A DNA stretch of 45,457 nt from a virus (Duplodnaviria > Heunggongvirae > Uroviricota > Caudoviricetes), in IMG/VR virus record IMGVR_UViG_3300032322_002674, positions 1 to 45,457 of that record; one strand, given 5' to 3'. Below the pieces are notes generated by a model. It was given only the letters and a program-made list of their open reading frames with translations. It did not search any database and was not told the origin of the DNA. The position numbers and the translations under genes were made by a program. Every line of letters starts with the position of its first letter. Within the stretch, counting starts at the first letter, position 1. Of the stretch, positions 12,649 through 43,196 are shown piece after piece.

Positions 12649-13875
12649 TTAAAAACAAACATTAAAAAATTCTTCTAATTCTTGTTTTGTTTTTATATTA
12701 ATTATTTTACCCTTATTTTTATTAAAAAATTCCATCCATGTTGATACCACTTTATTTACTTTCCAAGAATCAAAATAACTGATTACTATATCTTTAAATT
12801 CTTTTAAATCTATTACTTCACCGTTTTCAGTAGAATTATTAAACCAATTAAATAATCTATTTTTAAAACGTTCACAACCCTTATAACCTGAATCCTGCCA
12901 TTTACCACCTTCAAAATAATGATTAATAAACATCAAATACATTCTAAGAAGTTGTGGTTCATATTTATTTAAATCTACAACATTATTAAGTCTTTTACTC
13001 ATTTTATTACCATCTTCACCAAGAATCATACCTTGATGTACTACCTTCTTAAAAGGTTCATCAAAGTCAATATAACCAATATCATATAAAAATTTAGTTA
13101 TAAATCTTGAGTAAATAAGATGAGCACAAGCATGTTCATTTCCACCTACATATATATCAACTGGTTTAGTTTTATCATACATTATTGTATAAAAAGAAGA
13201 ATCAACAAATGTATCTAAAGTATCACTTTCACCTTCCATTGGTATTGGGCAACCCCAACTTCTTTGCCTTGATACACACCAATCTCTAAAATTATCTTCT
13301 CTTAACCAATAAAGTTGTTGTTTTTTAGTCTTTTCAGGGTAGTCAACTTTTTCTAAATCTTTAATAAGTCTTTCTCTATAATCTGTAATTTTAAAATACC
13401 ATTGTTCCATTTCTTTTTGTTCTATTATTGCACCACTTCTTTCACCCCTTCCTTCTATAATTTGTTCATTTGCAAGAACTGTTTTATCAATTGGGTCCCA
13501 ATTAACTAAACCCATTTTTTTATAAGCAAGTCCATGTTTATAAAGTTCTTTAAATAACCATTGTGTTTTTTCAATATAATAAGATTCAGATGTAATTAAT
13601 TTCTCTTCAAAAGAAGTATTCATTCTAACCATTTCCTTGCGGAAATTTTCTATATTCTCATAAGTTACTTCTTTAGGATTTCTACCAATTTTTTTTGCAT
13701 AATTTTCTGCTGGAAGTCCAAAAGAATCAAATCCAAATGGTTGAAAAACATTATATCCTTTAAATCTTTGTATTTTACAATAAGAATCTACAATTGAGTA
13801 GTTATACCAATGTCCACAATGTAATCCACTACCTGATGGATAAGGGAACATAACTGTAATAAATAAATTTTTCAT
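12649..13875 (-). CDS. leuS: minimal leucyl-tRNA synthetase (class Ia), ~408 aa, lacking the CP1 editing domain
   Basis: MFPYPSG-LHCGH (HIGH), GFDSFGLPAENYA, TVLANEQI, QWYFKITDY, RDWCVSRQRSWG, DTLDTFVDSS, YVGGNEHA, KMSKR. Start reassigned to ATG 13875, 4 nt after a TATATTTG box. Confidence 0.9.
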   Translation of the reverse strand: MKNLFITVMFPYPSGSGLHCGHWYNYSIVDSYCKIQRFKGYNVFQPFGFDSFGLPAENYAKKIGRNPKEVTYENIENFRKEMVRMNTSFEEKLITSESYYIEKTQWLFKELYKHGLAYKKMGLVNWDPIDKTVLANEQIIEGRGERSGAIIEQKEMEQWYFKITDYRERLIKDLEKVDYPEKTKKQQLYWLREDNFRDWCVSRQRSWGCPIPMEGESDTLDTFVDSSFYTIMYDKTKPVDIYVGGNEHACAHLIYSRFITKFLYDIGYIDFDEPFKKVVHQGMILGEDGNKMSKRLNNVVDLNKYEPQLLRMYLMFINHYFEGGKWQDSGYKGCERFKNRLFNWFNNSTENGEVIDLKEFKDIVISYFDSWKVNKVVSTWMEFFNKNKGKIINIKTKQELEEFFNVCF

Positions 13876-13879
13876 AATA

Positions 13880-13887
13880 CAAATATA
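13880..13887 (-). promoter_or_regulatory. Bacteroidota-type -7 box (TATATTTG) for leuS
   Basis: Exact TAnnTTTG 4 nt from the ATG; TTG about 20 nt upstream; back-to-back with an ATATTTAT motif on the + strand (13916-13923). Confidence 0.65.
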
Positions 13888-13928
13888 ATAAAAAAACAAT
13901 AAAAAGTCAATGCAAATATTTATTTTAT

Positions 13929-14132
13929 ATGGATATTTTATTAACAAATAAGGAATTGGTTGAAAAAATGGGTAAACTTTTTAAAGAACATGAGGATTTA
14001 AAAGTTAAAATTTATAATGATATGATTTTGTTGGAAGAAAAAGAAAAAGAATATATTGAATTATATGAAGAATTAAATAAAAGAACTGGTTTTAAATCAG
14101 AAACAAAGGTGGAGGAAAAAATAAATGAGTAA
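13929..14132 (+). CDS. small coiled-coil hypothetical protein
   Basis: 67-aa ORF after the ATATTTAT motif; overlaps the next gene start. Confidence 0.65.
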   Translation: MDILLTNKELVEKMGKLFKEHEDLKVKIYNDMILLEEKEKEYIELYEELNKRTGFKSETKVEEKINE

Positions 14133-17252: not shown

Positions 17253-18710
17253 ATGGGATTTTACAGAACATATTTTACAAAGAATAATACAATACTTAGA
17301 AATCGTTTGGTTAATACTGCAAAAAACCAAGTAACAGAATTATATTACGGTAAAGATGTTCCTATATTTTCAGGTAATACAAGTGGTTTTAGTGGAACAA
17401 CAGATTTTTCCAGATTCTTATTTCAGTTTGATGTAACTGAATTAAGGGAAAAATATATGGATAAAACCATCATATCTTCCACCACAATCACTCATAAACT
17501 AAAAATGACTAATACATCATCTTTTGATAGAAGTCTCTTAGGAAAACCGTTTAAAGACTATTTTAGAGCAACATCATTTGATTTAATTCTTTTTAGAATA
17601 CCAGAATCTTGGGATGAAGGTGTTGGATATGATTATAATAATAGAAATTCAATTAATTTCCAAACAAATGAAACTTTTTTATTGGGTCCATCAAATTTCA
17701 TAGAAAGGGGAACAAACCAAAATTGGACATTAACTGGTGCAGTTGGTGGTAATCCAACAATATTAAGGGAACAACATTTTGATAATGGTGATGAAAATCT
17801 TGAAATGGATATTACAGATATTGTAAATGATTTAATTACTGGAACAACCGAAAATTATGGTTTTGGTATTGCATTTAGAAGTGATTATGAAAGATTAGTT
17901 ACTGATGAAAAATATTATGTTGGATTTTTCACAAAATATACACAAACACTTTTTGAACCACATATAGAAACAGTTTGGGATGATACTGTACTTGATGATA
18001 GAAACAAATTTTATCAAAACAAATTAAATCGTCTTTATCTTTATGCAAATATTGGTGGAAATTATGAAAATATTGAAATAGGTCAGGTTAAAATATATGA
18101 TAATGAAGGTAATGTTTTTAGAACATTTTCATCCCAACAAATAAAACAATCAACCAAAGGTGTTTATTATGTTGAATTTAGTGTTTTAGATACTGATTCA
18201 GAATGTCAGGTTAATTTTATTGATGTATGGAAAGATATATACTATAATGGTGTAAAACAACCTGATGTGCAAATGTATTTTACAATACAACCAAATACAA
18301 AATTCTTTTATATAAATAATAATGATAAATTACCAACCAATTATTCAATATCATTAAATGGTATTAAAAAAGATGAAACAATTTTAAGGGGTGATATTAG
18401 AAGAATTACAGTTTTTGCAAAAAAAGATTTTGAAAAAAATAATGAAGTTATTGATGGATTAAAATGGAGAATATATTTAAAACAAGGTACAGAAGAAATA
18501 CCTATAACAAATTGGTTAGATGTTAATAGGGGTTATACTTATAATTGGTTTGAATTAGATACCAGTTTTTTATTACCAACGATTTATTATTTGGATATTA
18601 AATTAGAAACAGGAAATTATGTTAAAACCTATAATGAAACTTTAAAATTCTTTGTTGTTGGTGTTGATGATAAATTTAATTTATTAACTGCAAGGGATTA
18701 TCTTGGTTAA
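17253..18710 (+). CDS. putative virion structural protein (beta-rich, Ig/jelly-roll-like)
   Basis: 485-aa ORF after the ATATTTAT motif; SRFLFQFD, ESWDEGVG, MDITDIVN, NYGFGIAF pattern typical of phage tail/baseplate-associated proteins. Confidence 0.55.
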   Translation: MGFYRTYFTKNNTILRNRLVNTAKNQVTELYYGKDVPIFSGNTSGFSGTTDFSRFLFQFDVTELREKYMDKTIISSTTITHKLKMTNTSSFDRSLLGKPFKDYFRATSFDLILFRIPESWDEGVGYDYNNRNSINFQTNETFLLGPSNFIERGTNQNWTLTGAVGGNPTILREQHFDNGDENLEMDITDIVNDLITGTTENYGFGIAFRSDYERLVTDEKYYVGFFTKYTQTLFEPHIETVWDDTVLDDRNKFYQNKLNRLYLYANIGGNYENIEIGQVKIYDNEGNVFRTFSSQQIKQSTKGVYYVEFSVLDTDSECQVNFIDVWKDIYYNGVKQPDVQMYFTIQPNTKFFYINNNDKLPTNYSISLNGIKKDETILRGDIRRITVFAKKDFEKNNEVIDGLKWRIYLKQGTEEIPITNWLDVNRGYTYNWFELDTSFLLPTIYYLDIKLETGNYVKTYNETLKFFVVGVDDKFNLLTARDYLG

Positions 18711-19519
18711 ATTGGTAATTTAACTTTTGAAAGAATTTTATTTGAAATATGAGTATATATTTCGGTAGTTTTTACATTTGAATGTCCTGCGATATTAGAT
18801 ATTATTTTTAAATCTGTTCCTGTTTCTAAAAGAGTTGTAAAACATGAATGACGCAGATTATGAATTGATGTTTTATAATCAATATATTTTTTATATATTT
18901 GTTGACAAGATTTTATAGAATATTTTCCTGAATTTTGTCCATTAAATAAATAAACTTTTGGTTTGTATATTTTATAATAATCACGAAGAAGATTTAAAAT
19001 ATTTTCTGATAATGGTACAATTCTATCTTTTTTTCCTTTTGAGTTTAATATATTTATAATCATTCTTTTTGAATCAATATCTTCGATTTTTAAGTTTACT
19101 ATTTCTGAAACTCTTAAACCTACTGAAAAACATAAAGATAATATTGTTTTATGTTTTAAGTTTTTTATATTATTAATTTTTTTAATAATTGTTTCTGAAT
19201 CAATTACTTTAGGTAATTTCTTTTCTTTTAAAGGTCGAATAAAAGAAATTTTATCATATTTTTTATTTAGGACTTCTTTATATAAAAATTTTAGGGAACT
19301 GATTATTTGATTTTGTTGTGAAGATGAAGAATAATTGTAATTTGTAACGTATTCTTGGAAATCAGAAGAATTTAATCTTGTAAATGATTTATTCTGTTTT
19401 TTAAAAAATTCACAAATATAATGTAAATAAATATTTTTAGTATTTTCAGAAAAACCCTTTAATTTCAATTTTTGGACACAAATTTCGTAATAGTTAGTTT
19501 CTTTCATATTGAAAATCAA
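18707..19519 (-). CDS. tyrosine recombinase (integron-like integrase) with N-terminal SAM-like domain
   Basis: Complete catalytic set: GLRVSE (R), KGKKDR (K), HNLRH (HxxR), AGH, TTEIYTH (Y). Likely ATG start at 19507. Lacks the IntI-specific insertion before the YLF patch. Confidence 0.93.
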   Translation of the reverse strand: MIFNMKETNYYEICVQKLKLKGFSENTKNIYLHYICEFFKKQNKSFTRLNSSDFQEYVTNYNYSSSSQQNQIISSLKFLYKEVLNKKYDKISFIRPLKEKKLPKVIDSETIIKKINNIKNLKHKTILSLCFSVGLRVSEIVNLKIEDIDSKRMIINILNSKGKKDRIVPLSENILNLLRDYYKIYKPKVYLFNGQNSGKYSIKSCQQIYKKYIDYKTSIHNLRHSCFTTLLETGTDLKIISNIAGHSNVKTTEIYTHISNKILSKVKLPI

Positions 19520-19559
19520 TTAGTTATGGGTAGTTAGATATATACAATAGTTAGTTGCA
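19511..19559 (+). other. attI-like primary recombination site
   Basis: Immediately 5' of the recombinase; three TAGTTA direct repeats (19521, 19531, 19548). The last gives GTTAGTTGCA (19550-19559), which is 9/10 complementary to TACAACTAAC (20338-20347) at the end of cassette 1. No hairpin. Confidence 0.68.
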
Positions 19560-19596
19560 ATTGCTACATTTGTTTTTAAATTAAACATTTGTGTAA

Positions 19597-20295
19597 ACAT
19601 TTTTATTCTTTTTTTTGCCTACACACTACAAAAATATAAAAATTTTTAGTAAAAAACAATTTTTTAATATATTTATATAAAAATAAAACAATTTTATATG
19701 AGAACAACAAAAATTACTTTAAATGAATTACGTAGCTTAATAAAACAGATTATTAAGGAAGAAAGAATGCTGAATGAATCCCTAAATAAAGATATTAGGG
19801 AATTTGGTAAGGATTTAGGAAAATATTTAACAAATTCTGGTTTTAAAGTTAAATTTATGAGTGGTAGAATGTCTGATGAAGATATGAAGCAAATAAAAAC
19901 GAACACAAATCTTGTGGGTTTAGTGTTAGACCAAAATGATTCACAACAATCCTTGTACATGCACTTCAATCCAAAAGACTTAAACAATATAGAAAAAATA
20001 GTTGATAAATTTCAATTATCACCATATAGAGGTAAAGTTATGTCTAAAGGTTGGACAAATAAACAAGTTGTTGGTGCATTAAATCCTGGAGATATTTTTA
20101 AGTGGGATAGTCAAAAGGATAGTGGTCTATATCAATTTTTTAGACTAAAAAAGGTTGACAGTAAAGTTTCCAATGTGTAACCCCAACACACAAAATTAAT
20201 AAAAAAATTTGGAAAAAAAACAACAGCCAGTTAGTGAAAGTTTAAGATTAAGAAATTATTTTAAATAATCCACCACACAAAAAGAATAAAAATGT
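19597..20295. repeat. 17-bp perfect inverted repeat flanking the cassette 1 gene
   Basis: ACATTTTTATTCTTTTT (19597-19613) / AAAAAGAATAAAAATGT (20279-20295). Confidence 0.7.
19698..20180 (+). CDS. cassette 1 protein, putative capsid-internal protein
   Basis: 160-aa ORF with its own ATATTTAT motif (19669-19676); leader MRTTKITLNELRSLIKQIIKEERMLNES has several (I/L)xE sites. Confidence 0.7.
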   Translation: MRTTKITLNELRSLIKQIIKEERMLNESLNKDIREFGKDLGKYLTNSGFKVKFMSGRMSDEDMKQIKTNTNLVGLVLDQNDSQQSLYMHFNPKDLNNIEKIVDKFQLSPYRGKVMSKGWTNKQVVGALNPGDIFKWDSQKDSGLYQFFRLKKVDSKVSNV

Positions 20296-20340
20296 CTTAG
20301 TGCTTTGATTGGAGTTCCGTAGTAAATAATCCGCAACTAC

Positions 20341-20395
20341 AACTAACAGCGTGTATAAAACATTAAAACGATTTTATACACGCAAAACGTTATGC
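20341..20395 (+). other. attC-like site 1 (55 bp)
   Basis: AACTAAC-A-GCGTGTATAAAA-loop-TTTTATACACGC-AAAAC-GTTATGC; 12-bp perfect stem. Confidence 0.85.
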
Positions 20396-20414
20396 GAAAA
20401 TTTGCTTACCACCC

Positions 20415-20741
20415 TCAATACTCCGAATGAACTTTAGGATTGATTTTTTCAATTTCTGCATACGCTTCTTCAAACTCTTTTGTAATGTGTGGCTTTATTG
20501 GCATCTGTTTCGCTATGTAAGCCATACACGCATCTATTCCTTTCCAACTATATTTTTTGTAAATAGGTAGCACCCATTCCAAATCTTGTGCATCTATCAA
20601 TACCATATCTGCACACGCATAATTGAAAAAATCATTGGCGTTCATAGCTATTCCAAATGAGCCTTTAATCAGCCCACGCAAATCATCGCATAACAGCACA
20701 TTGGCGTTATTGCTTTCCGTTTTCAAATTATCATTTTCCAT
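20415..20741 (-). CDS. cassette 2 hypothetical protein (antisense, starts inside attC2)
   Basis: 108-aa ORF; visibly more GC/CpG-rich than the backbone; ATG at 20741 lies in the hairpin loop. Confidence 0.75.
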   Translation of the reverse strand: MENDNLKTESNNANVLLCDDLRGLIKGSFGIAMNANDFFNYACADMVLIDAQDLEWVLPIYKKYSWKGIDACMAYIAKQMPIKPHITKEFEEAYAEIEKINPKVHSEY

Positions 20742-20808
20742 ATTATTAAATTTAGTGTTTCAATTAAGCATCTTTGTGGCAACAACGCCAGTCTGCAAAA
20801 CGTTATGT
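20688..20808 (+). other. attC-like site 2 (~121 bp)
   Basis: GCATAAC-A-GCACATTGGCGTTATTGC ... GCAACAACGCCAGTCTGC-AAAAC-GTTATGT; 15/18 stem. Confidence 0.85.
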
Positions 20809-20812
20809 TTAA

Positions 20813-21059
20813 TTAAAAATTATTACGTGGGAAGTACTCCAACCCAGTTTCACTTATCATTATATTGTCAACAAATTTTATATCAACTTCTTCGTATTGT
20901 AACTCACCATTATAATACCTTGATATATGTAGTTTTTCACCTGTTCCATATCTACATTCAACTGATGAAGTATCATCGTCCCATGTAGGACACCAATCAG
21001 GTATTTTAATTTTACTGGCTTTCTGCTTCGTTTGAAAGTTTTTTGTTTAAATTATCCAT
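20813..21059 (-). pseudogene. cassette 3 gene disrupted by an internal deletion/frameshift
   Basis: Leader MDNLNKKLSNEAESQ* (21059-21012) is out of frame with a ~69-codon body KASKIKIPDWCPTWDDD...EYFPRNNF* ending at 20813. Confidence 0.65.
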
Positions 21060-21122
21060 TGTTTTTCGTATTAAGTTTTGAGGTATTAATCAGCCACCTC
21101 GTTTAGCTGCCAAACGTTATGA
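21016..21122 (+). other. attC-like site 3 (left arm mostly deleted)
   Basis: Right arm AGCCACCTCGTTTAGCTGC-CAAAC-GTTATGA is intact; only TGGCT (21016-21020) of the left arm remains. Confidence 0.65.
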
Positions 21123-21446
21123 AACATTCTTCATCCTTCTATTGATGTTCGCTAAAATCATATCATACTCGATAAATATGACATCACCTTCTCGTTCATC
21201 ACTTTCTTTATATCTACTCGGTTTGTAAAAATCTCTAACCATTTGTTTAGCTTCGACATATTTACCTTCGTTTAATAATGGTTCAATTTGTTCTGATATG
21301 ATTTTAGCTAATTTCTCACCCATAACATCAATATATCTATAATATTCCAATGAACGTTTCATAACATCAGATATATTCAAGTTTTCTGATTCGGTTAATT
21401 TAAACTTGTTAAATTTGTCAATGTGTTGTCTCATTTCTTTACTCAT
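21117..21446 (-). CDS. cassette 4 hypothetical protein (antisense, starts inside attC4)
   Basis: 109-aa ORF; ATG in the attC4 loop; its TAA stop is the TTA of the GTTA core at 21116-21119. Confidence 0.75.
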   Translation of the reverse strand: MSKEMRQHIDKFNKFKLTESENLNISDVMKRSLEYYRYIDVMGEKLAKIISEQIEPLLNEGKYVEAKQMVRDFYKPSRYKESDEREGDVIFIEYDMILANINRRMKNVS

Positions 21447-21493
21447 AATTTTCTTTTATAAGAAAAAACTACATATATCTGTGTCCGTTATGT
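21359..21493 (+). other. attC-like site 4 (~135 bp)
   Basis: TCATAAC-AT-CAGATATAT..AGTTTT ... AAAACT..ATATATCTG-TGTCC-GTTATGT. Confidence 0.75.
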
Positions 21494-21636
21494 TCAATTT
21501 TTAAAAAATTATGAGTTTCTATTATTAAATTCTTCTGAACTAATTCTATCGTGGTAGGTATGGACATCACCACAATTACTACCGCATAATACTCTTTTTT
21601 AAGTGCTTCGTATTTCATAGGTATAAATTAATTTTT

Positions 21637-21896
21637 ACTAAATATAACAACAAATACTATACCATTTTCATCCTCAAAAGAAATTTTTCTGAAACTTTTG
21701 TATTAAACCGTAAGTTTAAATCTAATTCTCTTGTAAAATTTCTTTTAATCCATCCTTTGAATCAAATAAATAATCTGTGATGAAATATTTTACAATAACT
21801 TCCACCAACATTCTTCTGTAACTTTTGTTTTCTAATTCTAACATAATTTTAAGTTTTAATTTGTAAATTTTGTTTAACTAAATATAACAACAAATA
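21637..21896. repeat. 20-bp perfect direct repeat, 240 bp apart (possible minus-strand promoters)
   Basis: ACTAAATATAACAACAAATA at 21637-21656 and 21877-21896; each copy precedes a short minus-strand ORF (ATG 21618, 21844). Confidence 0.65.
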
Positions 21897-21918
21897 TAAG
21901 AAATAAATTTTGATTTGT

Positions 21919-39963: not shown

Positions 39964-40461
39964 CTAAAAATATTTTATTGAATAGACAATTCTTTTTAAT
40001 TGTTCTTTTCTAAAATCATTTCTAATAATTCCTTTCATTTTATTTTTTCTTTTATGTGGGTATTTTACATAATTAAATGCATCATTATAATTCATTTCAG
40101 TATTCTCAACTATTTTTTTTATTCTTTCTTCACCTGCATTAGATTTTTCTTTTTTAACCATTAAAACATATTCTTTTATTTTATCAGAAAAAATATCATA
40201 ACCGTTAAAAAGAGTTTGTAACCTATCTATAAAAAATTCATTAAAATAAACTTTTTTGTTTCCATCAGTTTGTGGTGAAAAATTTATTGTATCAGGATTA
40301 ATATTCTTTATGAAATCATTAATTATTTTATATGCAGTTGCAGTTGAACGAACCGTATAAAACTATATAATAAAATATAGTAATTTCCTAATTCTTTCAT
40401 TCACATAATGATTTAAAAATTTATCTTCACTAATAATATTTTTAATAAATTCTATTGTCAT
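39964..40461 (-). pseudogene. ORF interrupted by a single in-frame TAG
   Basis: ATG 40461 overlaps the upstream TGA; the frame is continuous with ORF 39964-40161 except for TAG at 40363-40365. Confidence 0.55.
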
Positions 40462-43196
40462 AGATTATTTTTTATTCCTCTTGATGTTGTTGGAACTTTG
40501 TCAATACCTAATGATGGTTTAACCATTTTATTTTTATCTTTTGTATGTGTTTTTTTAAACTGATTATCCAAACCTATATCATATAGGGTTTCTTTCTTTT
40601 TATGTATTTGACCTCTGTATTGATTTAAAATATTTTCAATCCAACTTTTCATTTCCAATCCACCTGCAAGATAAAAATCAATTCCATCATTATTTTTGTC
40701 AAAAAAGTTTTTTAACCTTTTAATTTCATAATAAGAAATAGTATTTTGATTTAAAAGGTAGTTTGAACGTTTTGATGACATTCCATATTCTTTTTGGTAT
40801 TTTTTTATTTCTTCTTTAACAAAACCAGGTATTACAAATTCTTTTCCTTCTAATTCAGAATTTGTTTCATTAAGTTTACCAAAACTATCATATTTTGAAT
40901 TATCATTTTCTTCATATTCTTTCATTTTTTCTAATGCATCACCTAATTTATTAAATCCATGAAATGTTGGTAAATTTGGGTGTACTAAAAGTATATCGAA
41001 ATGACTAAATCCAATAAATAAATTTTTCAAATAATCAGAATATATTATTATACTTATTCTATCAAATGTTATAGGGAAATTAATTTTTTTATTTAGTTCC
41101 CTTTCAAATTTTTCTTTTAATTTTTTTAAATTAGTATGATACAACGTAAAAAACCCCAAATCAGATGTTGTAAATTCTTCAATTGGTTTTTTTAAAATCT
41201 GATTTATATATTCTTCCCTTTGTTTTTCTTGTTGTGATGCACGAGATTTTATTTTATCACCTAAACCCTCTTTTATAAAATCATCTTCAATGTTACCACC
41301 AGTCAATATTTTTTCAATATTTTCTAAAGAATCTTTATCTAAATCAAAAGTATCATTATATATATTATAATGTCCTATAATATCCATATCATCATAATAA
41401 AAATATCCATAATACAGAACCCCAACATTAATCCAATCATCATCTTCAAGTGAAGGATTTAATTCTAAATTATCACTTAATAAACCCCTTCTATTTAATA
41501 TTTCTTTTAATTCGTTTTCATAATATTTTATTCTTTTATACCAATATTTAATTTGTTCAGATAATTTAGTTATTTCTTTTCTTTTTTCTTCATTAACAGA
41601 ATCAAATACTTCTTTTATTGGATTATATTCGTCATCCAAAACCATTCCCCAATTACTTTTATTTACTTGGGTTTTATTTATATATTCAATTTTTTGTTTT
41701 AGATTTTGGTTTGCACGAGAAGTTAATTTTAATCCTTCTTTTATTTCCTTTTGTTTAAAAATTCCTTTAAAAGTTTCTTTTTCTCTTTCAATAATTTCTT
41801 TTCCTTTTTGTATTAATTCTTTTATTGTATTTGCACTACCAAAAACTCTAACTGGTTGATTATAAGAAACCCCATTAGATAATGTTCTTCTTTCTATTGT
41901 AGAATAAGAATAAGTTAAATCAGGCAAATTACATCTAAAATTAACATCTTTAAGTTCAAATGTAACTGAATTAATAAATTTACCTTTTAATCCTTGTCTT
42001 TCTTCTATTTCATAATCATAATCACCCATTTCTTTAATTATGAAATCACTTATTTTGTAAGTATATTTTGGGTGGGTATCTAATAAAAAATTATATTCAG
42101 GATTTGATAAATTTTCTAAACCTTTTTTTAATATTTGATTTATATATTCCTCCCTTTGTCTTTCCTGGTCTCCAGCACGAGATTTTAAATTTAATCCCTC
42201 ACTTATATTTTCTTTTTTTAAAAAATCCAATAATTCACCAACAGTTTTAAATTCCTTATATAAAGTTATTTTTAAATTTTCTAATTCAGTTTTAATTAAA
42301 AGAATGAAATCATCCCAAAATTCAATTCTATAATAACCACTATCATCTAATGAAAAAGTAATTTTTGTTATATCATCTCTAAAATCCTTTTCAATTTCAT
42401 GATATGGTTCTTGTTGTAATTTTTGAAGTTTATCAATTATCTTAACATAAATTGGTTTTGCATTATCATCACCAATAAATCTAATTTCTTCTGGTGTTAC
42501 ATCATTAATATTTTTGGATAATATATTTCTAATATATTCTTCCCTTTGTTTTTCTTGTTGTGATGCACGAGAAGTTAGTTTTAAACCTTCATTTATTTTT
42601 TCACTCTCATATTTTATCTCTAATTTTTTTATTTCTTCATAAACCTTCGGTAAATAAAAATTACCTATAAAATCAAAAATTTCTTTGTTTGTTAAATTAT
42701 AATTATATATAATACTATCAATTATTCTATTATATGTTTCAGGTATGTGTATTATACTTTGGAACTCTGTGTCAATGTTTTTTTGTTTATCATAACTTAA
42801 ATGTATTGGAATAACAGGATAATTATCCCAAAAAGGTGTGGCATAAAACAAATATTTGTCATTTTCCCAACTTACAACACCTTCCAAACTATTTTTATAA
42901 ATTTCATAACCTTTATATTGACTTGGTATATTATTATTTATATTACCAGCAAATTCATTATAAAATGATTCTTTTTCTTTTTCATTTAAATCCAAATAAT
43001 CAAGTTCATTATAATATATTACTTGTCCATTATCAAATTTATGTCTAACATATTTTCGTTTTATATCATCTGGTAAAAATATAAAAACTTTTACTGGTAA
43101 ATTAAATTTTTCCTTATTTTTAATTTTATTTGAATAAAATTCTATTGCCTTTAGTTCTTGTTGATTGGCTCTAGAAGTTAGTTTTAAATTACCCAT
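40458..43196 (-). CDS. 912-aa modular putative virion (head-internal) protein with five repeat-delimited modules
   Basis: Recurrent (I)xE-GL(K/N)L(T/K)SRAxQQExQREEYI motif. Confidence 0.7.
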   Translation of the reverse strand: MGNLKLTSRANQQELKAIEFYSNKIKNKEKFNLPVKVFIFLPDDIKRKYVRHKFDNGQVIYYNELDYLDLNEKEKESFYNEFAGNINNNIPSQYKGYEIYKNSLEGVVSWENDKYLFYATPFWDNYPVIPIHLSYDKQKNIDTEFQSIIHIPETYNRIIDSIIYNYNLTNKEIFDFIGNFYLPKVYEEIKKLEIKYESEKINEGLKLTSRASQQEKQREEYIRNILSKNINDVTPEEIRFIGDDNAKPIYVKIIDKLQKLQQEPYHEIEKDFRDDITKITFSLDDSGYYRIEFWDDFILLIKTELENLKITLYKEFKTVGELLDFLKKENISEGLNLKSRAGDQERQREEYINQILKKGLENLSNPEYNFLLDTHPKYTYKISDFIIKEMGDYDYEIEERQGLKGKFINSVTFELKDVNFRCNLPDLTYSYSTIERRTLSNGVSYNQPVRVFGSANTIKELIQKGKEIIEREKETFKGIFKQKEIKEGLKLTSRANQNLKQKIEYINKTQVNKSNWGMVLDDEYNPIKEVFDSVNEEKRKEITKLSEQIKYWYKRIKYYENELKEILNRRGLLSDNLELNPSLEDDDWINVGVLYYGYFYYDDMDIIGHYNIYNDTFDLDKDSLENIEKILTGGNIEDDFIKEGLGDKIKSRASQQEKQREEYINQILKKPIEEFTTSDLGFFTLYHTNLKKLKEKFERELNKKINFPITFDRISIIIYSDYLKNLFIGFSHFDILLVHPNLPTFHGFNKLGDALEKMKEYEENDNSKYDSFGKLNETNSELEGKEFVIPGFVKEEIKKYQKEYGMSSKRSNYLLNQNTISYYEIKRLKNFFDKNNDGIDFYLAGGLEMKSWIENILNQYRGQIHKKKETLYDIGLDNQFKKTHTKDKNKMVKPSLGIDKVPTTSRGIKNNL
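41206..42572. repeat. 41-bp perfect intragenic direct repeat
   Basis: ATATATTCTTCCCTTTGTTTTTCTTGTTGTGATGCACGAGA at 41206-41246 and 42532-42572; degenerate copies near 41700, 42150, 43160 and on the + strand near 32620. Confidence 0.85.

Follow-up and report, generated by a model that had tools for sequence, protein, structure and literature searches.

A probable integron-like phage cassette array with reversed genes that are predicted to start inside putative hairpin recombination sites

Can a folded recombination site carry the start codon and the first residues of the gene that moves with it? The question is raised by a 45,457-nt stretch of DNA from an uncultured tailed phage (IMG/VR record IMGVR_UViG_3300032322_002674; hereafter, the window), which is the first part of one 173,457-bp contig with a G+C content of 24%. 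Here, an array of four cassettes and a decayed fifth (19551-21487) adjoins the gene of a tyrosine recombinase, and its hairpins resemble attC, the folded cassette recombination site of integrons. A preliminary description, made from the sequence alone, had proposed that these hairpins supply translation initiation and an N-terminal leader to captured genes of antisense orientation. Comparing the window with related phage arrays, we consider it probable that this is an integron-like cassette array with back-to-front cassettes and loop-started genes, served by a short Xer/IntI-related recombinase that lacks the IntI insert.

On the + strand, the hairpins of the window are laid out as CATAAC, one or two nucleotides, a stem, a loop, the returning stem, a spacer of the AAAAC type, and GTTATG, with four such elements between 20339 and 21492. 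Two of them are intact and leader-bearing. Hairpin H2 (20689-20807, 119 nt) extends from CATAAC at 20689-20694 to GTTATG at 20802-20807, with stems at 20696-20713 and 20779-20796 and a loop of 65 nt, while H4 (21360-21492, 133 nt) extends from CATAAC at 21360-21365 to GTTATG at 21487-21492, with stems at about 21368-21385 and 21464-21481. Minus-strand open reading frames (ORFs) with their ATG in the hairpin loop, at 20741 and 21446, are present as had been described, and their frames do read through stem and core. The ORF of cassette 2 (cassette 20390-20802, minus strand, comprising a body and H2; ORF 20415-20741) starts with an 18-aa leader and continues as ...NNANVLLC-DD..., the core being spanned by the codons CTG TTA TGC. 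That of cassette 4 (21117-21487, minus strand, body and H4; ORF 21117-21446) has a 28-aa leader and passes the core as ...ENLNISDV-MKR. Its stop codon coincides, as proposed, with the TTA of the opposite core (21117-21119), which forms the first three bases past the G of the neighboring core and the last three of the cassette itself. Both ORFs thus terminate in, or shortly ahead of, the core that follows. The bodies are likewise bounded by their own inverted ends, 20389-20405 pairing with 20678-20694 at 15 of 17 positions and 21116-21125 with 21355-21364 at 10 of 10. Folding of H2 and H4 as single-stranded DNA gives -13.7 and -14.3 kcal/mol for the minus strand, versus -9.7 and -11.7 kcal/mol for the plus strand. 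Cassette 3 (20803-21116, minus strand) is decayed: the loop ATG at 21059 exists as described, and three-frame translation shows a body open to a stop at 20813-20815, but the frame shifts in an A-run after this ATG. The H3 remnant consists of a right arm (21091-21111) and a core (21116-21121), and no hairpin is predicted in this stretch (z = +0.25). With its frameshift and its missing left arm and left core, this cassette is probably immobile. Elsewhere in the genome, CGTTATG/CATAACG sites (3378/3486, 89.8 kb, 91.1 kb, and 163.2 kb) lie in ordinary sequence with no hairpins.

The same organization recurs in other phages. A scan of viral contigs identified 123 relatives of the recombinase with upstream arrays, from which 80 loci were retained and oriented with the recombinase on the + strand. 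Using a finder that requires AAC, a spacer, a 12-bp stem, the returning stem, a spacer, and GTT, we detected 233 sites in these loci against 23 in shuffled sequence, with the consensus ATAAC-G...T-GTTAT. On the recombinase strand, 142 of the 233 sites have a 5-nt spacer past AAC and a 1-2-nt spacer ahead of GTT, and the inverse polarity is essentially absent. The sites are also confined to one side of the enzyme, 177 being upstream and 4 downstream of the recombinase, despite the larger amount of downstream sequence available to search. The genes were said to be antisense in classical integron terms, which is what the ORFs of at least 60 aa in 37 non-redundant arrays display: 233 share the strand of the recombinase and face it, against 5 on the other strand. 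Mismatches in the stems, read on the gene-sense strand, are G.T in 444 cases and A.C in 65, indicating that the gene-sense strand is the one selected to fold. In one contig (IMGVR_UViG_3300042879_005260, 114-122 kb; locus L004, compared with L031), a second long array is found 6-14 kb downstream of the recombinase, showing that arrays are not always adjacent to the enzyme.

The recombinase of the window is a 270-aa Xer/IntI-like tyrosine recombinase encoded on the minus strand (18707-19519; Pfam Phage_integrase, 2e-31), whose ORF opens with TTG at 19519 and whose likely start is the ATG at 19507. Its conserved RHS...GHS...IYTH region aligns with the Xer/IntI clade, to which it belongs. It scores under the NCBIfam cut-offs for XerA, IntI, XerC, and XerD, with the archaeal-type XerA and the integron-integrase model as top matches; with the latter (TIGR02249), it reaches 148 bits against a cut-off of 265, in a match split into two stretches. 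The best solved relative is XerA (4a8e), and other top matches are IntI4 and XerD. When aligned with VchIntIA (2a3v), the protein matches in two pieces and has 28 residues where IntI has 76, and the IntI-specific insert, the I2 helix, is therefore absent. In integron integrases, this helix is regarded as the key innovation and as a requirement for recombining hairpins.

On the recombinase side, the array ends at an attI-like junction (19538-19553, minus strand), composed of TAAC and then TATTGTATATAT, about 45 nt upstream of the recombinase ATG. The motif TAAC followed by TAT(T/C/A)(A/G)TATAT recurs at this position in nearly all of 45 upstream regions inspected, out of a non-redundant set of 64. 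Across related arrays, the conserved junction, written as TAAC and TATTATATAT, lies 45-100 nt before the recombinase start codon, and the motif occurs once in the 173-kb genome. We regard it as a putative attI, that is, a candidate insertion junction beside the recombinase gene. The possibility that TATTATATAT is a general promoter of the phage was rejected, as it is not enriched before genes. In one related locus (L002, 3303-3458), the recombinase gene adjoining the array is broken off after 20 codons, and the array there may be frozen as a result of this truncation.

Since the core boxes are palindromic, the window by itself cannot assign a hairpin to a gene, and this assignment was obtained from an all-against-all blastn comparison of the arrays. 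The blocks common to non-syntenic arrays start at the (A/C)TAAC of a hairpin, include this hairpin and the gene that follows, and stop at the next TAAC(G). Their right ends fall on the TAAC side in 17 cases and on the GTT side in none. A unit encoding an 80-aa protein, P0077, is 99.7% identical over 314 nt between the loci L001 and L002, with unrelated flanks; it is internal in L001 and abuts the TAAC/TAT... junction next to the recombinase in L002 and in a further locus, L003. Taken together, the block boundaries and the P0077 unit identify the mobile unit as a hairpin plus the gene starting in or after it. The swap point would be located within TAAC of the gene strand, corresponding to G/TTA on the + strand of the window. 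Clean one-cassette insertions or deletions were also sought between syntenic arrays, yielding one event only, which is uninformative.

The opposite assignment retains the classical polarity, with sense cassettes that end in their own downstream hairpin and a loop-encoded leader that each gene receives from its upstream neighbor, as in permuted cassettes. The order on the gene strand (stop, TAAC, hairpin, GTTA, next gene) does resemble ORF-attC-ORF, the bulge lies on the arm that follows the stop, the side on which extrahelical bases were at first expected, and the window and L001 share a hairpin (B) together with 34 nt of the upstream cassette, while their downstream bodies differ. However, the downstream hairpin is carried along with the body in 0 shared non-syntenic blocks, versus 17 for the upstream one, the limits of several blocks coincide with the TAAC of the upstream hairpin on one side and with the following TAAC on the other, and in L002 and L003 the P0077 hairpin and gene are placed directly on the attI-like junction. 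We consider the classical polarity very improbable. Our first working model was of this kind: it took the minus strand as the classical top strand, with sense genes and a leader given by the site of the upstream neighbor. The location of the bulge and the core ATG of cassette 4 had suggested it, and it was dropped after the boundary analysis and the P0077 unit.

With the hairpin placed at the head of its gene, the question becomes whether the loop ATG and the leader are used. The 24-nt arm of cassette 4 occurs in 45 unique complete copies, drawn, like those of the cassette 2 arm, without selection by protein search. All 45 have an in-frame loop ATG, and in 42 the leader frame stays open over 40 codons or more, compared to 1 and 0 for the other frames. 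They sit on 40 unrelated body clusters. The cassette 2 arm gives the same picture, as its 30 unique complete copies, found on 20 body families, all have the loop ATG and are open in frame in 29 cases (0 and 2 in the other frames). Among the 101-135-nt sites of related arrays, a loop ATG is open to the core in the frame of the body in 44 of 52, against 37 of 104 for control frames (p = 4e-9), and such an open loop ATG is hardly ever seen in sites of 70-100 nt. Past the core, the first Met of most bodies comes only after 7-43 residues, or is missing altogether. The proposal that the site supplies the predicted start and leader is supported by the retention of the frame, the lack of nearby Met codons, and the onset of conserved protein sequence at the core.

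The composition of the leaders points in the same direction. In 34 variants of a 22-aa leader, the loop-coded F, N, and E codons vary at their third position, the first two being invariant, and the mean entropy is lowest at codon position 2. Such fixed first and second positions with a variable third are the signature of selection on the peptide, and the loop-coded ...I-K-x-F-N-E motif is under purifying selection. Alternatively, the loop ATGs and leaders might be untranslated, the open frames being a by-product of AT-rich hairpins and the genes starting at or after the core. In favor of this possibility, the core ATG of cassette 4 (GTTATG) is in frame and the corresponding Met29 is invariant in 23 homologues; Met is found directly at the core in 9 of the 45 leader-bearing ORFs; and the leaders are hydrophilic and poorly modeled, residues 1-10 of ORF 2 having a predicted local distance difference test (pLDDT) value below 50. 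Yet open frames that reflect composition would not explain the open leader frame in nearly all arm copies and the near absence of other open frames, the lack of a nearby Met in most bodies, the coding-type pattern of variation, or the 8 copies in which the leader is retained after loss of the left arm. Moreover, the conserved domain of ORF 2 begins at the core with no ATG ahead of it. Untranslated leaders are, in our view, a poor explanation with little chance of being right, but the core ATG of cassette 4 could serve as an alternative or second start.

Leaders and bodies also vary independently of each other. In a protein search, the 28-aa leader of cassette 4 is near-identical on more than 30 proteins, which diverge right after the Val encoded by the core GTT, and homologues of body 4 bear other leaders. 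Among homologues of body 2, conservation begins at DDL, the first residues past the core, and the leaders are variable, some homologues retaining the leader of the window on a body that is just 65-72% identical. In L001, the same leader type is found on an unrelated protein, and three different leaders are found on one N6/N4 methyltransferase body, the joint being at GTGTTAG. These families show both patterns that the preliminary description had proposed to look for, namely similarity starting at the core and one body with different leaders. At the nucleotide level, homology can break exactly at GTTA, for example between the array of the window (WIN 1541-1639) and L003, which are 97% identical in this segment. 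The GTTA box, at which only a sharp homology break is seen, may be an enzymatic crossover that explains the leader swaps. The presence of one head in frame on 40 bodies may reflect rare recombination at this second box, or the birth of cassettes by site capture.

Combining these observations, the cassette of our preferred reading, on the gene strand, would consist of TAA/C, a G and a 4-nt bulge, an imperfect hairpin, the GTTA box, the body, and the next ...TAA. In the long sites (about 112-135 nt), the loop holds a conserved AT-rich box and the ATG. With the ATG in the loop, the ribosome would start there, translate the 3' stem arm and the GTTA box, and enter the body, so that the recombination site would encode the first 16-28 residues of the protein; in the window, cassettes 2 and 4 would be such units, and cassette 3 a decayed one. 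The recombinase would cut the folded gene-sense strand at TAA/C, and units would be inserted at the junction beside its gene. Initiation at the loop ATG may be favored by the unpaired, AT-rich nature of the loop in the transcript, in a type of host that is not known to rely much on Shine-Dalgarno pairing. The AT-rich boxes, which are conserved 20-45 nt ahead of the loop ATG, are candidate cassette-borne expression signals, and this would explain how genes facing the recombinase do without a common promoter. Finally, hairpin heads might occasionally be re-joined to other bodies at GTTA, which would explain the occurrence of one leader on many bodies.

Several points weigh against this reading. 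Besides the in-frame core ATG of cassette 4, the gene of cassette 1, the only such case among the cassette genes of the window, is on the + strand, opposite to the usual orientation. The unpaired bulge is on the arm adjoining the predicted cut, while in the VchIntIA-VCR (Vibrio cholerae repeat) structure the classical extrahelical bases are reportedly on the arm other than that beside the cut. The boundary statistics draw on some 40 informative blastn blocks and a simple in-house finder of hairpins. The G.T bias, lastly, is on the transcribed strand and could reflect the folding of RNA rather than of single-stranded DNA; being restricted to one strand, it fits a single-stranded fold of either kind.

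This last point leads to another explanation, in which the hairpins are mainly promoter/terminator modules acting at the RNA level, the genes are shuffled by homologous recombination, and the recombinase has another job. In addition to the G.T bias, the conserved AT-rich boxes ahead of the loop ATG, the 90-97% likeness of hairpin families between unrelated cassettes, and the second array located 6-14 kb from the recombinase in one contig would all fit such modules. However, the boundaries are confined to a 4-base box instead of falling at variable points within the repeats, the polarity of the sites and their position relative to the recombinase are strict in 80 loci, a conserved junction ends the array beside the recombinase gene, and the cassette ends are complementary, as if closing the stem of an excised unit. 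We find RNA-level modules improbable. Their known counterparts are the promoter early stem-loops (PeSLs), in outline composite promoter-terminator motifs that mediate modular shuffling in T4-type phages; the likeness, that of repeated stem-loop/expression modules flanking small variable phage genes, makes them a looser analogue (PMC2839356, PMC4122927). The loops of the present arrays also contain promoter-like boxes, yet the boundaries are at the 4-base core. To our knowledge, PeSLs depend on homologous recombination and have no conserved AAC/GTT core, dedicated recombinase, or coding role.

The closest parallel to our preferred reading, an integron-like array, is the integron itself. Both have a tyrosine recombinase of the Xer/IntI clade adjoining an insertion junction, here a putative one, and an array of single-gene units that are bounded at the core and mobile, as illustrated by the P0077 unit at two array positions. 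In both, the sites are folded imperfect palindromes with a variable loop closed by AAC/GTT boxes, the ends of each cassette are complementary, and the array lies on one side of the recombinase with a fixed polarity. As in sedentary chromosomal integrons with their uniform attC families, site families are common to unrelated genes. The geometry is also the same, with the crossover at the recombinase-distal end of each site. In attC bottom strands, the cut is reported within ...AA/C (PMC7439510), and the cut predicted here, within ...AA/C, has the same position. The differences are equally clear. The recombinase lacks the I2 insert, and 233 of 238 ORFs are on the folding (bottom-type) strand and directed toward the recombinase, whereas integron genes are sense and directed away from the integrase. 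There is no role here for a common Pc promoter. The sites have a spacer asymmetry of 5 nt versus 1-2 nt, in place of the pair of extrahelical bases that attC has on the arm facing its cleaved box. In addition, the predicted start codon and leader are inside the site, and the array resides in a phage. The system thus appears to work like an integron, yet it departs from one in two defining respects, having neither the IntI insert nor genes in sense orientation under Pc; judged from sequence comparison, it is a variant of the integron idea.

A literature search, of incomplete coverage, found no paper on this phage system, the nearest being Qi et al. 2023 (PMC9892861) and the PeSL papers. The former described attC-type sites and clusters of attC sites lacking integron-integrases (CALINs) in virulent phages, including marine Bacteroidota phages, with methyltransferases among the cargo, and these integrase-less clusters are recognized by bacterial IntI1. 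It reports no dedicated phage recombinase, reversed gene orientation, or genes starting inside sites. Under the definition of a CALIN (at least 2 attC sites and no integrase nearby), the present array is not one, as a conserved recombinase is directly beside it; a tool scoring IntI only would nevertheless label it so. The nearest functional analogue of a site-encoded start is provided by ORF-11, ORF-17, and ORF-18 of attI1, in which a short site-borne ORF with its own initiation signals crosses the crossover point (PMC8876359). ORF-11 aids cassettes without initiation signals by translational coupling and stops in the cassette core (PMC8876359). These aids work through coupling, whereas the ORFs of the present arrays belong to the attC-like sites of the individual cassettes and continue in frame into the protein.

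In integrons, the attC site is seen as a non-coding tag at the 3' end of a promoterless gene. The equivalent site in these arrays heads the gene and is predicted to encode its start and N-terminus, which would give a recombination site a coding role. The system is widespread in large uncultured phages, and its recombinase lacks a domain considered essential for recombining hairpins. A conserved site in frame with dozens of unrelated genes also makes it a natural system for studying cassette birth, an old question, and a natural case of a recombination site within coding sequence, an arrangement that had to be engineered in the design of synthetic attC sites. It further points to a dedicated phage route for swapping small genes such as methyltransferases. 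One may go further and view the long hairpin sites as portable heads that equip any body they capture with signals for expression and a working peptide at the N-terminus as well as with a site for recombination, with GTTA as a second in-frame swap point and a recombinase that handles folded sites without I2; this broader idea is possible, but we rate it as unlikely.

As for the function of the peptide, the leader may be a cleavable capsid-targeting or processing signal. Its F-N-E motif resembles the phi-x-E motifs ahead of the repeat modules in a 912-aa protein of the same genome. This protein (40458-43196, minus strand) has four internal repeats of a module and a related N-terminus; the repeats are preceded by I-x-E and start with GL(K/N)L(T/K)SRA...REEYI, and the REEYI...ILKK helix resembles the N-termini of cargo proteins. 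This likeness and the conserved F-N-E of the leader hint at protease-cut targeting peptides. The N-terminus of the cassette 1 ORF, ...LNELRSLIKQIIKEE..., is similar to that of numerous cargo proteins encoded by related arrays, such as ...FIATTIREYLNE... in L001 at 8207 and 10905, both with ART-PolyVal matches.

Cassette 1 (19551-20389) encodes this 160-aa ORF on the + strand (19698-20180) and includes H1 (20339-20394), a short, 56-nt form of the hairpin without leader. The ends of the cassette are complementary (TTAGTTG/CAACTAA), and both strands of H1 fold (z = -3.6 and -3.8). Cassette 5 (21488 to about 21846, minus strand), which closes the array on its distal side, is a remnant with no hairpin left, in which translation shows ...KLIIF followed by a stop. 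As seen by blastn between WIN 1475-1639 and L001 5911-6085, it is a degraded version of a cassette preserved intact in L001 (5658-5933). For the cassette proteins, neither Pfam nor NCBIfam gave a match. The AlphaFold model of ORF 2 is confident (pLDDT 87) and has no match in the PDB at E <= 0.001 with Foldseek, while that of ORF 4 is all-helical and uninformative.

The 173-kb contig encodes a large terminase subunit and is therefore of phage origin; with few PHROG matches otherwise, it represents a large, divergent tailed phage. Among ten large proteins compared with PHROGs, the terminase is the only one named, the other nine have no functionally annotated match, and no T4-type core gene was found. 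Among cultured phages, the recombinase is closest to the integrases of Flavobacteriia phages, namely those of Cellulophaga and Polaribacter (35-40% identity), which hints at a Bacteroidota host, and the host is thus probably a member of this phylum. No match in the window was obtained with Rfam at gathering thresholds, and no tRNA genes were found; in L001, an intergenic stretch of the small-gene region (2104-2262) is tRNA-like, by eye only. The window also encodes a 432-aa protein (12649-13947, minus strand; Pfam tRNA-synt_1, 5e-38) that matches only the catalytic core of class I aminoacyl-tRNA synthetases and is much shorter than a normal enzyme of this type. In the region of the cassette 5 remnant (21488-21900), a 33-nt direct repeat occurs twice (21624-21656 and 21864-21896), each copy preceding a small minus-strand ORF.

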